64,000 bases of DNA from Planctomycetota bacterium (GTDB lineage Bacteria > Planctomycetota > UBA1135 > UBA2386), in NCBI GenBank assembly GCA_046290465.1, contig JBKAGP010000001.1:1504001-1568000 (forward strand), given 5' to 3'. The stretch's first letter is position 1; each line of letters opens with the position of its first letter. This document shows positions 9,399 through 15,692 of this stretch, piece by piece. Both the position numbers and the translations under genes were made by a program. Under the pieces are notes generated by a model. The model was not told the origin of the DNA and did no database searches. It saw nothing but the letters and a program-made list of their open reading frames with translations.

Positions 9399-9568
9399 GG
9401 GCATCCTCCGTCACGTGTTGCACAACTACTCTCCCATGCAAAGCTATCGGCATCACACAGTGTCCGCAACCACCCCGGCAAGCCCGACAACCTGCGGCCG
9501 TCGTGGCGGCGCATGGTCTCGCACGTGACCAGGCCGGCAGCCAATGGTGCGACGCGCTGCCGGCGCGC

Positions 9569-9796
9569 ACCAACCCGCGCGGCTGGCCCGACGCCGAACC
9601 GCTGGCCGTCCGGCGACCTGGCTCGCGACGGATCCTCGCGCTCGGCGACTCGATGACGTTCGGTGCCAAAGTCGACTACGGCCAGCGCTTCACCGAGGAT
9701 CTCGAGGACGAACGGACCGAGGTCCTCGACCCCGGCGTCTCTGCGTACGGCACCAACCAGCAACTACGTGCCGAACTGGCCCGCCGCGGTTGGTAG
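9569..9796 (+). pseudogene. Truncated remnant of an SGNH/GDSL hydrolase gene
   Basis: TNPRGWPD...RILALGDSMTFG...EVLDPGVSAYGTNQQL matches GDSL blocks I-II, then TAG; no blocks III/V and no obvious start. Confidence 0.65.
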
Positions 9797-9846
9797 CGAT
9801 TCCGCAACGCGGTCGTGCCGACCGGCCGGTGCCCTACCATGTCTCG

Positions 9847-11523
9847 ATGCGTATCCGTGCCGCGCTGCTGACGTCCGCCCTCGCCACCGCCTCCGCGTTC
9901 GCCCAGCAGAGCGAGCTGCGCGAGCGCATCGAGACGTTCTCCGCGGACCTCGCCGACCTCAACCGCCGCTACGACACACCGATGTCGGACGAACGGCGCG
10001 ACCGGCTGCGCCGCCGCTACAACGAGGAGCTGCGCGCGCTCGACGGCCTCGACTTCGAGGCGCTCGCTCGCGACGGGCGCATCGACTGGATCCTGTTCGA
10101 GAACCACCTGCGGCGCGAGCTGCACGAACTGCAGGAGCAGCAGCGGCGCGACGCCGAGCTGGGCACGCTGCTGCCGTTCGCCGACCAGATCACCGCGCTG
10201 TGCGACGCGCGCCGCAAGCTCGACGGCGTCGACGCGCGCAAGACGGCCGAGATCGTCGACGGCATCGCCAGGAGTGCCGCCGAGGTGCGCGCCCGCCTGC
10301 AGCGGGGCGAACTCGACGACACCCCGCCGCCGATCCGCGAGCGCGCCGCGCGCCGCCTGTCCGAACTGCGCCGCGCGCTGCGCGGCTGGTTCCGCTACCG
10401 CGACGGCTACGACCCGCAGTTCTCGTGGTGGGTGCGCGCGCCGCACGAGCAGGCCGACACCGGCATCGAGCGTCTCGGCGCTGCGCTGCGCTCGCTGCCG
10501 CGCGGCCAGCAGGGCGTCGACCGCACGCTGATCGGCGACCCGATCGGCGACCAGGCGCTGCAGCAGGCGCTGGCGTTCGAGTGGATCCCCTACACCCCCG
10601 CCGAACTGGTCGCGATCGCCGAACGCGAGTTCGCCTGGTGCGACGAGGAGATGGCCAAGGCCACCGAGGAGCTCGGCTGCAAGGACTGGCGCGAGGCGCT
10701 GGAGAAGACCAAGCAGAGCCACCGAGACCCCGGCGAGCAGCCGCAGCTGATCAAGGAACTGGCGCACGAGGCCATCGACTTCCTCGAGCAGCGCGAGCTG
10801 CTGACGATCCCCGAACTCGCCAAGGAGTGCTGGCGCATGTCGATGATGTCGCGCGAGGCGCAGCGGGTGAACCCGTTCTTCCTCGGCGGCAACACCATCC
10901 AGGTCAGCTTTCCGACCGACGCGATGGCGCACATCGAGAAGCTGCAGGCGCTGCGCAGCAACAACGAGCACTTCTGCCGCGCGACCGTGCACCACGAACT
11001 GATCCCCGGCCACTGGCTGCAGCAGTACTCGCAGGCCCGCCACCGCACCTGGCGCGCGCCGTTCCGGACGCCGTTCTGGATGGAGGGCTGGGCGCTCTAC
11101 TGGGAGATGCGGCTCTACGACCTCGGCCTCGCCAAGAACGCGATGGACCGGGTCGGCATGCTCTACTGGCGCAAGCACCGCTGCGCGCGGATCGTGTTCT
11201 CGCTGAACTTCCACCTCGGCCGCTGGACCGGACCGCAGTGCGTCGAATACCTGATCGAGCGCGTCGGCCACGAGCGCGCCGCGGCCGAGGGGGAGGTGCG
11301 GCGCTCGGTCGGCGGCGCATATCCGCCGCTCTACCAGGCCGCCTACATGCTCGGCGGCCTGCAGATCCGGGCCCTGCACCAAGAGCTGGTGGTGTCCGGC
11401 GAGCGCACCGAGAAGCAGTTCCACGACGAGATCCTGCGCCACAACTCGATTCCGATCGCGGTGCTGCGGGCGGCAATGGCATCGCAGCCGCCGGCCCGCA
11501 GGCTGTCGCCCTGGCGATTCTGA
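9847..11523 (+). CDS. DUF885 family secreted protein (zincin-like)
   Basis: Signal peptide; HHELIPGH, EGWALYWE, YQAAYMLG motifs; TACCAT 6 nt before ATG. Confidence 0.88.
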   Translation: MRIRAALLTSALATASAFAQQSELRERIETFSADLADLNRRYDTPMSDERRDRLRRRYNEELRALDGLDFEALARDGRIDWILFENHLRRELHELQEQQRRDAELGTLLPFADQITALCDARRKLDGVDARKTAEIVDGIARSAAEVRARLQRGELDDTPPPIRERAARRLSELRRALRGWFRYRDGYDPQFSWWVRAPHEQADTGIERLGAALRSLPRGQQGVDRTLIGDPIGDQALQQALAFEWIPYTPAELVAIAEREFAWCDEEMAKATEELGCKDWREALEKTKQSHRDPGEQPQLIKELAHEAIDFLEQRELLTIPELAKECWRMSMMSREAQRVNPFFLGGNTIQVSFPTDAMAHIEKLQALRSNNEHFCRATVHHELIPGHWLQQYSQARHRTWRAPFRTPFWMEGWALYWEMRLYDLGLAKNAMDRVGMLYWRKHRCARIVFSLNFHLGRWTGPQCVEYLIERVGHERAAAEGEVRRSVGGAYPPLYQAAYMLGGLQIRALHQELVVSGERTEKQFHDEILRHNSIPIAVLRAAMASQPPARRLSPWRF

Positions 11524-11876
11524 GCGACCTCGGATGGAGCTGACCACCTGGTTGTTGGTGGCCGCGGCGACCGTGCACGGTCGGTCGGAACTCTGGTCCG
11601 CATTTCGTGAGGAACCGCCCGGCTTGGCCCTCCGGTGGCGCCCCAAGGCCAGCAGACGGCCTTGCCGACGGCTCTGGAGGCCGTGGCTGCCTCGTTGCGC
11701 GGCGGACCAACAGCCAAGTGATCCGTCGCCCTGGTGAGCGGACGCGGGCCGGCGAGAGGGTAAATCACAAGGCGAGGCCGGTCGGGGGTTTGCCTCCACC
11801 GGACAGATCGCCGATAACATCAGCCCGCGCACGGTCGTCCGTGCGCCAACACGCCCCACCAATGGAGCAAGACCCT

Positions 11877-12470
11877 ATGCGATTGACTGCAAGTGCCCTG
11901 CTTGCGGTGTGCGCTCTTGCGGCTCCGACCCTCGCCCAGACCAAGGGCCAGGAGATCAAGCCGAAGGTCGACACCGAAAAGCACTGGCGTATCGAGTGCT
12001 CGGGAATCGGCGGCTGAAGCGCGGCCGGCACCGCCCAGAGGGTCAGTTCGATCCTCAAGAAGCACAAGAACATCAAGAACCTGATCTTCGACACCACCGG
12101 TGGCGGGTACTTCCAGCTGAAGGACCCCAAGAAGGTGGTGGAGCTCGCCGACCTCAACCTGCTGCTCGAGAAGAAGCGCGCAGGCAAGAAGGTCCGCGTG
12201 CGCAAGCTCGAAGAGGTCGACCTCGAGAAGGCGGACATCGTCTACGAATGTTCGATCTCCGGCCTTGGTTGAGGGGGCACCGCCATCGAGACGCGTGACG
12301 TCTTGAAGAAGCTGGACGGTGTCATCCGCGTTCACCCGAACGGGGTGAACGGCAAGGCGCTGGTCTTCGTCAAGGACAAGAAGTCGCTGACGGAGGAGAA
12401 GGTGGAGACGGCCCTCAAGGCCACCAAGAAGCTCCGCCTGCGCAAGTTCAAGAAAGCCACCGACGTCTAG
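11877..12470 (+). CDS. Putative secreted selenoprotein with two tandem HMA-like domains and two in-frame UGA (Sec47, Sec132)
   Basis: GGAG SD at 11864-11867; signal peptide MRLTASALLAVCALAAPTLAQ; in-frame TGA at 12015 and 12270 within ECSGIGG*SAAGTA and ECSISGLG*GGTA; HMA-like sequence continues after each; host-like codon usage up to TAG 12468; strong hairpin follows. Confidence 0.8.
12038..12056 (+). promoter_or_regulatory. Candidate bacterial SECIS element 1
   Basis: GAGGGTC-AGTTC-GATCCTC: 7-bp stem, loop begins 27 nt after UGA 12015-12017, G at loop position 2. Confidence 0.6.
12286..12306 (+). promoter_or_regulatory. Candidate bacterial SECIS element 2
   Basis: TCGAGACG-CGTGA-CGTCTTGA: 8-bp stem, loop begins 21 nt after UGA 12270-12272, G at loop position 2. 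Confidence 0.65.
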
Positions 12471-12493
12471 TCGACGGCCGACTGACCGAACGC

Positions 12494-12532
12494 GAACGGG
12501 CCGCCACGTCCTCGAGACGTGGCGGCCCGTTC
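12494..12532. terminator. Strong hairpin between convergent genes (likely terminator)
   Basis: Perfect 17-bp stem GAACGGGCCGCCACGTC/GACGTGGCGGCCCGTTC, 5-nt loop, 23 nt after TAG 12470; U-tract weak. Confidence 0.7.
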
Positions 12533-12599
12533 TGCGTCGTGGTCGCGGCTCGACGGCCTCTACCGCCGCCGCGACGGACGGCAGGCGCGGCCCCGCACA

Positions 12600-13160
12600 T
12601 CACGCGGCAGCCGGCAGGCTGCCCAGACGCCGCACCGAGGCGGTCGTCGCGACGGCGGCGGCGACCACCGCGATGCCGAGCCCGATGTGCGGCCCGACCG
12701 GCCCGCCAAGCTGCGTGCAGGCGTAGAGCGAGAAGCAGGTCGCGAGCACCGAGCCCACCAGCGAGACCGTCACCATCGTTCGCGCCGATGCGTCGTCGGC
12801 CGACGACGCCACCAGCTGCAGCGTCGCCGAGACCGCGAGCAGGATCAGCACGGTGACGCCGACCCAGCTGTCGATGCCCGCGGCGGTGACCGTGCCCTGC
12901 ACGCCGAGGGTGCCGAACACGCCGTTCATCGCCTCGCCGAAGCCCGCCATCGGCGCGCCTTCGATCTGCACGTTGCCGAGTCGGCCGAACGCGTCGTTCG
13001 CCGCGTGGTCGAGGGCGGCGCCGAGCTTGGACAGGTCGACGCGGAACCACGGCAACAAGCACGCGATCGCGCCGGCGGCGGCGGCGAGGGCCGGGGTCAG
13101 GGCACCGGCGGTGGCGGGACGGGACGGGTACGGACGGGTGGCGGCAACGGCTTCGGGCAT
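12600..13160 (-). CDS. Hypothetical integral membrane protein (~4 TM)
   Basis: AAGGAG SD before ATG 13160; LLPWF motif and four hydrophobic helices. Confidence 0.7.
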   Translation of the reverse strand: MPEAVAATRPYPSRPATAGALTPALAAAAGAIACLLPWFRVDLSKLGAALDHAANDAFGRLGNVQIEGAPMAGFGEAMNGVFGTLGVQGTVTAAGIDSWVGVTVLILLAVSATLQLVASSADDASARTMVTVSLVGSVLATCFSLYACTQLGGPVGPHIGLGIAVVAAAVATTASVRRLGSLPAAA

Positions 13161-13350: not shown

Positions 13351-13371
13351 TATCGGCGACGATGGGCCGCG

Positions 13372-13785
13372 ATGGCATCCCGACGCAAGCAGGCCGACGA
13401 CCGCACGCCGCAGATCACCGAAGCCGAACTGACCGTGCTCAAGTCGTTCTGGAACGACGGGCCGGCGACCGTGCGCGACCTGCTGACCCGGCTCGGCACC
13501 GAGTGGGCCTACACCACCGTGCAGACGCTGGTGTCGCGGCTCGTCGACAAGGGCCACGTGCGCGCCGACCGCCGCGGCGTCGCCCACGTGTTCGCGGCCG
13601 CGCGCGACCGCGAGGAATTCGCCCAGCTGCGCGTCGAGGAGGTCGCCAGCTCGCTGCTCGACGGCGCGGTCGCGCCGCTGGTGCTGCGGCTGGTCGAGAA
13701 CGGCAGGTTCTCCACCGACGACATCAAGCACTTCCGCAAGCTGCTGCGCGACGCCGAGCAGCGCAACAAGGGAGGCGACGCGTGA
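13372..13785 (+). CDS. BlaI/MecI/CopY family transcriptional repressor
   Basis: ITEAELTVLKSFW, ATVRD, WAYTTVQTLVSRLVDKG winged-helix motifs. Confidence 0.93.
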   Translation: MASRRKQADDRTPQITEAELTVLKSFWNDGPATVRDLLTRLGTEWAYTTVQTLVSRLVDKGHVRADRRGVAHVFAAARDREEFAQLRVEEVASSLLDGAVAPLVLRLVENGRFSTDDIKHFRKLLRDAEQRNKGGDA

Positions 13786-15692
13786 CGTTCCTGCTCGCCA
13801 ACGCCGCGATCGCGACCCTGCTCGCGGCGATCGTCTACGCGGTCGGTCGGCTGGCCCGGCCGCAGCCGGCCGTCATGCACGGGCTGTGGCTGCTGGTCGT
13901 GCTCAAGCTGGTCACGCCGCCGCTGTTCGAAGTGCCGGTCGACGCCTCCTGGTGGCGCACGGCCGAGCCGGCCGCGCGCGAGGCGTCCGGAGCCAACGCG
14001 TCGCCCACCACCCTCGCCACGTCGCCGCCGCGGCTCGGCCCCGACGACGTCGTGACCGTGCACCCGCTGCCGCCGGCCGCAGCGGCCGCCGCCCCGCCGA
14101 GCGGGCTCGAAACGACGTTGCTGGTCGCGTGGACCTGCGCCAGCATGCTGGTGCTGCTGGTCACCGCCGCCGGTGCCCTGCGCGGAAGCCGGCGCCTGCG
14201 TGCGCTGGCGCCGGTGCCGCCTTGGTTGCGCCGCGAGGTCGAGCAGCTCGCCGCCCGCATGTCGCTGCGCGTTCCCGAGCTGTGCGACGACCCGAGCGCA
14301 GCGGGCCCCTACCTGTGGACGCTCGGCCGCACGCGGCTGGTGCTGCCGGCCAGGTTGCTGCAGCAGCAGCCAGAACGCGGCCGCGCCGCGGTGCTCGCCC
14401 ACGAGCTGGCCCACCTGCAGCGACGCGACCACTGGGTCGCGCGCGCCGAGGTGTTGCTGACCGCGGCGTTGTTCTGGCACCCGCTGTACTGGTTCGCGCG
14501 GGCCCGCATGCGCCTGTGGGCCGAGCTCGCCAGCGACGCGGTCGCGGTGCGCACGGTGCCCGGCGCGAGCCTCGAATACGCGTCGATGCTCGTCGACGCC
14601 GCCGCGCGTCCGGCGTCCCCATCCACCGGTCCGGTGACCGCGGTGCTCGCAGCGAGACCGTCGGCACGGGCCGCATTCGAACGGAGGTTGAAGATGATCC
14701 TGAACGAGAACCTGCCCCGCCGCGCCTCGCGCGCCTGGCTCCTGCCCTTTGCCGGCCTGTTCGCCGGCCTGTTCGCCCTGCCGGTCACGGCACAGGACCC
14801 AAAGCCGCGCGAGACCGTCAAGGTCGAGATACGCGTCAACGGCAAGAAGGTCGAGGGACTGACCGGCGCGCAGCAGAAGGCCCTGCTCGAGCTGCTGCAG
14901 CAACGCGACGGCCAGAGCCGGGATCGCGCGGCCGGAAGGCGCCGCGCCAGCGAGCGCGCCGGGCGGATCGTCGACCGTTCGCGTCGGCCGGGCATCCGCG
15001 TCGACGGCAGCATCGGCGAAGAGATGCGCCGGGGTCTGGCCGAGGCGCGGCGTGAGATCCAGAAGGACCAGGACCTGGCCGAGCTCGGCATCACCGACGA
15101 GGTCGTCAAGATGATCGACGGCATCGCCAACGGCGACGGCATCGAGCAGCACCTCGACGGCGTCATCAAGGCCGCGATGGAAGGCGCCGGCGACCTGGTG
15201 CTCGACGAGCTCGAGAACGACCCCGACCTGCAGAAGCTCGGCCTCGACAAGGGCATCGCCAACCTGGTGAAGGGCTTCCTCGGCAACCAGCACAACCAGC
15301 GCATGATCGGCGACCTCGCCCGCACGGCGATCGACTCGGCGCTCTCCGAAGCACGCGCCGAGATCCGCAACGACCAGGACCTCGCCAGGCTCGGCATCGC
15401 CGGCGACGTCGAGAAGCTGATCGACTCGGTGATCTCGGGCGGCGGCGACTTCGAGGGCGACCTGGAGCGCGTCGTCGAGCGCGCGATGAAGGCCGCGATC
15501 GAGCCCGAAGGCCGTTCGCCGCGCACGCGCGGCAAGCTGCGCGTCGGCCGGAAGCCGCAGCAGCCGAAGGCCGAGCAACAGCCCGCCGACCGCGAACTGC
15601 GCGAACTCGAGCGCGCCCTCGAGCAGGCCAACGCCGAGCTCGAACGCGCCAAGGCCCGCCTCGACGAGCTGCGCCGCCAGCGCCGTCGCTAG
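13782..15692 (+). CDS. M56 (BlaR1/MecR1) family membrane metallopeptidase with a helical-repeat C-terminal domain
   Basis: GTGA overlap with repressor; LWLLVVLKLVTPP, LAHELAHLQRRD, FWHPL, ELASD, FERRLKMIL. Confidence 0.9.
   Translation: MTFLLANAAIATLLAAIVYAVGRLARPQPAVMHGLWLLVVLKLVTPPLFEVPVDASWWRTAEPAAREASGANASPTTLATSPPRLGPDDVVTVHPLPPAAAAAAPPSGLETTLLVAWTCASMLVLLVTAAGALRGSRRLRALAPVPPWLRREVEQLAARMSLRVPELCDDPSAAGPYLWTLGRTRLVLPARLLQQQPERGRAAVLAHELAHLQRRDHWVARAEVLLTAALFWHPLYWFARARMRLWAELASDAVAVRTVPGASLEYASMLVDAAARPASPSTGPVTAVLAARPSARAAFERRLKMILNENLPRRASRAWLLPFAGLFAGLFALPVTAQDPKPRETVKVEIRVNGKKVEGLTGAQQKALLELLQQRDGQSRDRAAGRRRASERAGRIVDRSRRPGIRVDGSIGEEMRRGLAEARREIQKDQDLAELGITDEVVKMIDGIANGDGIEQHLDGVIKAAMEGAGDLVLDELENDPDLQKLGLDKGIANLVKGFLGNQHNQRMIGDLARTAIDSALSEARAEIRNDQDLARLGIAGDVEKLIDSVISGGGDFEGDLERVVERAMKAAIEPEGRSPRTRGKLRVGRKPQQPKAEQQPADRELRELERALEQANAELERAKARLDELRRQRRR

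Follow-up and report, generated by a model that had tools for sequence, protein, structure and literature searches.

The interval 11877-12470 of the analysed DNA is, taken as a whole, best explained as one intact gene for an exported double selenoprotein with tandem HMA-type domains. We consider this explanation highly probable. The DNA is a stretch of 64,000 nucleotides from a Planctomycetota bacterium (the window), and all positions given here refer to it. Comparison with homologues shows, at the level of sequence, one gene with two selenocysteine (Sec) codons and two SECIS hairpins. Its second domain is by comparison of the HMA type, with Sec at the position of the first Cys. The gene founds a Planctomycetota family that is present in public databases only as fragments. 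With it, the prokaryotic selenoproteome gains a well-supported family from a phylum barely covered by the selenoprotein surveys that we compared.

The gene consists of one frame of 197 codons on the forward strand, from the ATG at 11877 to the TAG at 12468-12470. Two in-frame TGA codons interrupt it, at 12015-12017 (codon 47) and at 12270-12272 (codon 132). A Shine-Dalgarno-like GGAG (11864-11867) is located 9 nt 5' of the ATG. An earlier reading of this DNA, made from its sequence only, had claimed exactly this frame with its GGAG, two TGA codons and TAG, and all of these elements were found in the sequence. Translation with table 11 breaks the interval into short ORFs only. Read through both TGA codons, the coding sequence (11877-12470, TAG included) would encode a 197-residue selenoprotein precursor. 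The assignment draws on 43 distinct homologous coding sequences, and the homologues share a Met-Arg start. By eye, residues 1-21 (11877-11939, ending in A-Q) form a putative Sec-type signal peptide, through which the protein would be exported to the periplasm. This region has a basic N-terminus and a hydrophobic core, and A20, Q21, and T22 are nearly invariant in the alignment of homologues. In the AlphaFold model, residues 1-30 have a pLDDT of about 50. Cleavage of the signal peptide would leave a mature protein of about 176 residues.

Both TGA codons are conserved throughout the family. A six-frame search found matches in 23 of 61 related genomes, and every full-length match carries two in-frame TGA codons at 27-77% identity. 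One weak match (L043 in genome G021, E 1.5e-4) lies inside a long unrelated frame and was left out of all alignments. In the alignment of the 22 full-length homologues, which covers the same range of identity (27-77%), neither Sec column varies. Another 38 loci, nearly all of them titled 'Planctomycetota bacterium' MAGs, came from a scan of GTDB species genomes, and these titles agree with the phylum guessed in the earlier reading. The 37 full-length loci have U at both sites, and the remaining locus, a fragment, has U at site 2. We pooled 59 coding sequences, which reduced to 43 distinct ones, and TGA is present at both columns in all 43. Assembly errors were also considered as a source of the two TGAs. 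Independent assemblies keep both codons: the contigs X2 and X7, from two other runs, differ from the window by 1 and 12 letters, respectively, and show no difference at either TGA.

The genome has the machinery needed to read these codons as Sec. The search for selA, selB, selC, and selD found selA (453 bits), selB (354 bits), selD (352 bits), and a tRNA-Sec (72.8 bits), all over their curated cut-offs. ARAGORN also reports a tRNA-SeC with the anticodon TCA. Of the 61 relatives, 60 have selA. Among them is every one of the 23 with a match at E <= 0.001, of which 22 are true homologues. The co-occurrence of selA therefore has no discriminating power. The selD of this genome is a selenoprotein gene itself (G000:C1:1309619-1311945, locus L010, outside the window). 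It directly adjoins selA and has an in-frame TGA in Gly-Sec-Ala-Ala-Lys. A hairpin follows this TGA about 20 nt downstream, comparable to those of the gene at 11877-12470. In the proposed mechanism, the SelB/tRNA-Sec system would decode both in-frame UGA codons as selenocysteine, each of them served by its own SECIS hairpin within the coding sequence.

A SECIS-like hairpin was found after each UGA, both within the coding sequence. The first one (12038-12056) lies 20 nt after UGA 1. It has a stem of 7 bp (12038-12044 with 12050-12056) and the loop AGUUC, which is CGUGN in other members. The second one (12286-12306) lies 13 nt after UGA 2, with a stem of 8 bp (12286-12293 with 12299-12306) and the loop CGUGA. 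Both are supported by covariation. In hairpin 1, 98.7% of the cells are paired, and 4 of the 7 pairs change on both sides. None of 500 shuffles reached any of the measures, except for one measure (2 of 500), and slid controls were only 32-52% paired. In hairpin 2, the paired cells amount to 94.9%, both partners vary in 6 of the 8 pairs, and none of 500 shuffles did as well. Position 2 of the loop is an invariant G in both hairpins (G32 and G26 in the two hairpin alignments). In both domains, the loop lies over a conserved Arg-Asp/Ser stretch of helix 1. This suggests a module that was duplicated together with its SECIS, and the tandem domains probably arose from the duplication of such a Sec-bearing module.

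The two TGAs are almost certainly Sec codons, as judged from the sequence comparisons. Their conservation in 43 of 43 coding sequences, the covarying hairpins, and the complete Sec machinery bear out the proposal of the sequence-only reading that they are not nonsense mutations. That reading also expected Cys or TGA at positions 47 and 132 of the homologues. TGA was found at both positions and Cys at 132, but Cys at 47 did not appear. More precisely, no Cys form of site 1 occurs among the sequences examined (database proteins, metagenome loci, and homologues). At site 2, Cys is encoded by TGC in the loci L089 and L096. It is also present in the proteins P0145, P0146, and P0154, three database clusters of the family that begin after site 1.

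L089 is the DNA of one of these three clusters. It is found on a 55.7-kb metagenome contig (region 2501-2821), and its site 1 keeps the TGA with an intact hairpin 1. Site 2 has changed to TGC, and hairpin 2 has lost 3 of its 7 inner pairs, as read from the letters. One of these breaks is a synonymous Leu switch from TTG to CTG, and the rare TTG is kept in nearly all TGA-bearing sequences. Seven metagenome loci cover both sites. Six of them have TGA at both, with both hairpins, and the seventh is L089. The hairpin thus persists only together with its UGA, as a SECIS would be expected to do. L089 captures a conversion of Sec to Cys in which the SECIS is lost as well. In the homologue P0008 (187 aa; 82.9 bits against the family profile), the two sites carry Lys and Asp, neither Sec nor Cys, and this protein may represent a functionally different paralogue.

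The family is found in databases mostly as pieces. A profile search of 1.84 billion protein representatives gave 142 matches. Of these, 29 do not extend past residue 46, 50 fall within the stretch from one site to the other, and 27 start beyond site 2. It means that 106 of the 142 representatives are pieces bounded by the TGAs. Likewise, a word-indexed search gave 2 near-full-length matches and 210 short ones, and 118 of the 120 listed short matches are bounded by TGAs. The claim that gene callers would split the gene thus holds in both searches. Every name given by the source among the word-indexed matches is 'hypothetical protein'. These results show how such genes vanish from databases, where a few entries also have Trp in place of Sec.

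The other 36 matches of the profile search span a site. Three of them are family-like (P0002, P0061, and P0008). The remaining 33 are ordinary CxxC HMA proteins, and 27 of these align their first Cys to Sec132. Among the last six, P0034 has Trp at Sec132, P0091 and P0125 have Thr, and three scored too low for listing. P0034, from a related HMA family, has three HMA domains and reaches 97.9 bits with the model NF041115.

Trp at the Sec sites would be expected if TGA were a sense codon in these bacteria. P0002 and P0144, from public protein sets, have Trp at both sites, and P0061 has it at site 2, in a local alignment without site 1. Under such an explanation, TGA would be read as Trp or Gly (code 4 or 25), or it would be a leaky stop read by a near-cognate tRNA. 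However, TGA still works as a terminator. Of the 43 distinct coding sequences of the family, 24 end at TGA, 13 at TAG, and 4 at TAA, and 2 run to a contig end that leaves the stop unclear. In the window, TGA also terminates the DUF885 and SASA genes nearby, and these stops together exclude a reading with code 4 or code 25. The presence of tRNA-Sec with selA, selB, and selD argues against a decoding other than Sec, as does the covarying hairpin after each internal TGA. In addition, the natural replacement at site 2 is Cys (TGC) and not Trp. The entries with Trp (P0002, P0144, P0061, and P0034) most likely come from gene prediction with genetic code 4. For these reasons, we consider it very improbable that the TGAs are anything other than Sec codons.

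We modelled the protein with AlphaFold from an alignment of 22 sequences, with Cys in place of Sec. The structure prediction with this replacement, proposed by the earlier reading, gave a confident two-domain model (pLDDT 88.5, pTM 0.78). It has two beta-alpha-beta-beta-alpha-beta units, residues 33-117 (domain 1, 11973-12227) and 121-193 (domain 2, 12237-12455). Each Sec is placed at the start of the first helix of its domain, with Sec47 (12015-12017) at the N-terminus of helix 1 in domain 1. The internal repeats that had been claimed are clear in this predicted structure, but they are weak in sequence (BLASTP of the halves, E 0.003 over 23 residues). The cysteine of the 'EC' before each TGA, described as a feature of the repeat, is not conserved. 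In the alignment, its position holds C, A, V, or T.

In the model, domain 2 is a clear HMA fold. A wide fold search (VIA) with residues 118-197 returned 29 top chains, all of them HMA domains (Z 8.2-10.9). The best match was 1mwz, with Z 10.9 and an rmsd of 1.6 over 73 residues. Foldseek gave CopZ 6ff2 (TM 0.88, rmsd 1.3), and MerP was also among the best matches. A profile search of PDB sequences aligned Sec132 (12270-12272) with the first Cys of CxxC in ATP7B (E 2.4e-6), CopA, MerP, and CopZ. The Pfam HMA model PF00403 matches only domain 2 of the window's member, with 20.7 bits against a cut-off of 24.8. At E <= 0.01 the same model matches 17 of 22 members (best E 9.3e-5).

Domain 1 is less certain. 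Modelled alone, it reaches a pLDDT of 90.5, and HMA domains lead the list of its fold search. The best Z is 7.4 and none reaches 8, a level at which the tool warns that the score can reflect a common arrangement, so domain 1 is HMA-like and not a proven HMA domain. When the whole model was used in the fold search, no solved chain matched the two domains simultaneously. The description of the protein as a tandem HMA thus stands for domain 2, but domain 1 is HMA-like by fold only.

No Pfam or NCBIfam model reaches its cut-off on the window's protein. The NCBIfam scores were 19.6 bits against 180 for MerTP, 17 against 95 for NF041115, and 14 against 92.55 for MerP TIGR02052. The relatives P0002, P0144, P0061, and P0008 were likewise far from the cut-off of any NCBIfam model. 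The loop motifs of the family depart from the classical pattern claimed for the second repeat (HMA/CopZ/MerP, with TGA at the first Cys). The HMA fold and the TGA at the first Cys were found, but the second Cys is missing. Domain 1 has the loop motif G-[IL]-x-G-U-[GSA]-A-[AP], and domain 2 has G-L-[GA]-U-[MGQ]-x-[TS]-[AC]. The residue at +3 from Sec is Thr, Ser, or Ala. Cys appears at +4 in domain 2 of 2 of the 43 sequences and in domain 1 of none. Moreover, 14 of the 43 sequences have no Cys at all after residue 22. With no second Cys in the loop, it is neither a CxxC nor a UxxC site. The second Cys is missing in 41 of 43 sequences, and the family does not belong to the classical HMA proteins.

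We estimated the selection pressure on the three segments of the coding sequence (NG86, all pairs of the 43 sequences). The dN/dS values are 0.35 before UGA 1, 0.54 between the two UGAs, and 0.43 after UGA 2. All three segments are under purifying selection, and this includes the two downstream of a TGA, where it had been looked for in particular. These values bear on the possibility of a decayed pseudogene with two nonsense mutations, or of three separate small genes. Such a situation would account for the short ORFs obtained with table 11 and for the pieces listed as hypothetical proteins in databases. However, a pseudogene is at odds with two TGA codons kept in 43 of 43 sequences across 27-77% identity, and with dN/dS values below 1 in every segment. 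The pieces together fold confidently as one two-domain protein in the AlphaFold model. As for three genes, the first piece alone would contain the signal peptide and one strand only. We regard both possibilities as extremely unlikely.

We compared the double selenoprotein with known Sec-containing and HMA systems. One of the closest is NF041115 (UxxU_metal_bind). It also has an HMA-type fold, Sec at the position of the metal loop, and two Sec residues, and it is cut up by gene callers. In NF041115, both Sec residues are in one loop (UxxU) of a single domain. In contrast, the protein described here has two domains with one Sec each and no second ligand in the loop. The UxxU motif is absent, and the score on this model (17 bits against 95) places the protein outside it. 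MbdU (NF045648) is a proposed metal-binding protein with two Sec residues as well. However, it has a CU dipeptide motif, and there is no Cys-Sec dipeptide in the present protein. NF045648 is absent from the NCBIfam scan of the window's protein even at E <= 10.

Sec in place of the first Cys of an HMA loop has a precedent. The cation-transporting P-type ATPase selenoprotein has UxxC in its N-terminal HMA domain (GOS survey PMC2398784; Table 1 of PMC13188914). There, the domain is part of a membrane pump and keeps the second Cys, whereas here it belongs to a free tandem protein with predicted export, no second Cys, and no neighbouring pump. MerP and CopZ (TIGR02052; 1afi, 1osd, 6ff2, and 1cpz) share the small beta-alpha-beta-beta-alpha-beta domain, and MerP is periplasmic with a signal peptide. 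Domain 2 matches their structures with TM 0.88 (6ff2), Z 7.7 (1afi), and Z 9.2 (1cpz). These proteins have Cys-x-x-Cys in a single domain and belong to mer or cop operons, whereas the context here is not related to metals. A MerP assignment finds no support in TIGR02052 (14 bits against 92.55) or in the scanned neighbours, which contain no mer genes. Two consecutive HMA domains are known from CopA of Bacillus subtilis (2rml, 1p6t) and from the tandem N-terminal HMA domains of ATP7B, which are the top Foldseek matches to the whole model. However, only one domain superposes at a time (TM ~0.3, rmsd ~14 Å, ~160 columns), and their domains each have a CxxC.

Full-text searches of the literature gave nothing closer. 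Table 1 of a 2026 review (PMC13188914) includes 119 prokaryotic selenoprotein families or subfamilies. Among these, NF041115 (UxxU, 2 Sec), the cation-transporting ATPase (UxxC), a putative mercuric transport protein, and MbdU (CU, 2 Sec) come nearest. No entry of the table describes a tandem of HMA-like domains with a single Sec in each. A 'MerP' selenoprotein without Cys homologues appears in the GOS survey (PMC2398784). The passages of the Haft preprint (10.1101/2022.07.06.499078) that we compared contain no HMA family. Neither a tandem HMA protein with Sec nor selenoproteins of this type from Planctomycetota turned up in the searches. Selenoprotein candidates of other Planctomycetes are given in supplement S9 of PMC4807772.

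The neighbours of the gene in the window are PEPCK, DUF885, a BlaR1-type M56 peptidase, and a sulfatase. DUF885 is located upstream in 10 of 23 loci and PEPCK in 6, and the sulfatase is downstream in 3. We scanned ORFs of about 150 aa or more with a simple caller, in the window and in six wider loci of divergent members. There was no P-type ATPase, mer, cop, or cus gene among them, and a metal-resistance context was rejected. No reductase or thioredoxin-like partner gene was seen either. Neighbours of this kind give no functional lead.

Each domain of the mature protein would present a single selenolate at the N-terminus of helix 1, where the CxxC loop of HMA domains has its first Cys. The two selenolates might act together, or each might act with a neighbouring residue of its loop. 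Candidate partners are the Met after Sec132, present in most members, and the conserved DTTG and HPNG loops. Tentatively, we propose that the protein binds or carries a soft metal or metalloid in the periplasm, and we put this function a little short of even chances.

A genuine double selenoprotein could also have its job in redox or chalcogen chemistry and not in metal binding. Several variants can be imagined: an inter-domain diselenide, a selenenyl-sulfide with partners, a perselenide or persulfide carrier of sulfane sulfur or selenium, or a periplasmic peroxidase-like nucleophile. The single Sec per domain, with no partner Cys in 41 of 43 sequences, would fit this chemistry. The same is true for the absence of metal genes nearby and for the housekeeping-like syntenic region beside PEPCK. 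Besides, most known prokaryotic selenoproteins are redox proteins (PMC13188914, section 7). However, both the fold and the place of Sec within it correspond to metal-binding HMA domains, and not to thioredoxin-like proteins or carriers of the rhodanese or TusA type. The 29 of 29 HMA chains at the top for domain 2 and the lack of a visible reductase or thioredoxin-like partner gene also speak against it. We consider a redox or chalcogen role less likely than metal binding.

Under the metal-binding proposal or its redox counterpart, the selenium site itself would be unusual. The family could be the first derived from HMA in which CxxC is replaced by a lone Sec. It would have a putative Se-M-Se centre between the domains, or a reversible Se-Se one, be periplasmic in Planctomycetota, and depend strictly on Sec at site 1. 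We rate this whole combination as rather unlikely. If true, it would represent a metal or redox site made of selenium alone, in a protein often without any cysteine. An HMA scaffold that has no second thiolate, and often no cysteines, offers a clean natural system for the chemistry of lone or paired selenolates in the periplasm.

Beyond the coding sequence, the 17-bp hairpin that had been claimed after the TAG is present at 12494-12532, and its pairing is perfect. The 80-nt stretch that holds it (12471-12550) folds with -58.3 kcal/mol (z -7.0), and 0 of 200 shuffles were as good. The hairpin is rich in G+C and has no U tract. It is a possible terminator or transcript stabiliser. A consensus scan for promoters and terminators called nothing, this hairpin included. 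Rfam found no family at threshold in 11700-12700. Its miRNA matches are spurious, drawn by the terminal hairpin. A sub-threshold match to the Guanidine-II riboswitch at 11800-11846 is on the minus strand, opposite the gene leader (22.9 bits against a gathering score of 32), and is probably due to chance.

Two contigs from RNA libraries overlap the gene. The first, X18 (241 nt, from a seawater metatranscriptome), runs from 11840 to 12080 and bridges UGA 1. It has two differences from the window, and one of these replaces a G-U pair of hairpin 1 with A-U. Another contig, from an RNA-library run (X20), covers 12275-12486 only, and UGA 2 is not bridged. Contigs of RNA libraries may stem from DNA, so these two are a weak hint of transcription.

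The DUF885 gene of the window (9544-11523) lies upstream, on the same strand as the selenoprotein gene. We rejected DUF885 as an obligate partner of the selenoprotein. It was not found in four genomes of the same genus that keep the selenoprotein (89-94% complete; search with the window's DUF885 protein, E <= 1e-10). In another genome (G036), DUF885 is on a different contig from the selenoprotein gene. Finally, the gene for the BlaR1-type M56 peptidase (13362-15692) is found between the selenoprotein and sulfatase genes of the window. Three relatives have the sulfatase gene a short distance downstream of the selenoprotein gene, and the M56 gene may therefore have been inserted locally.
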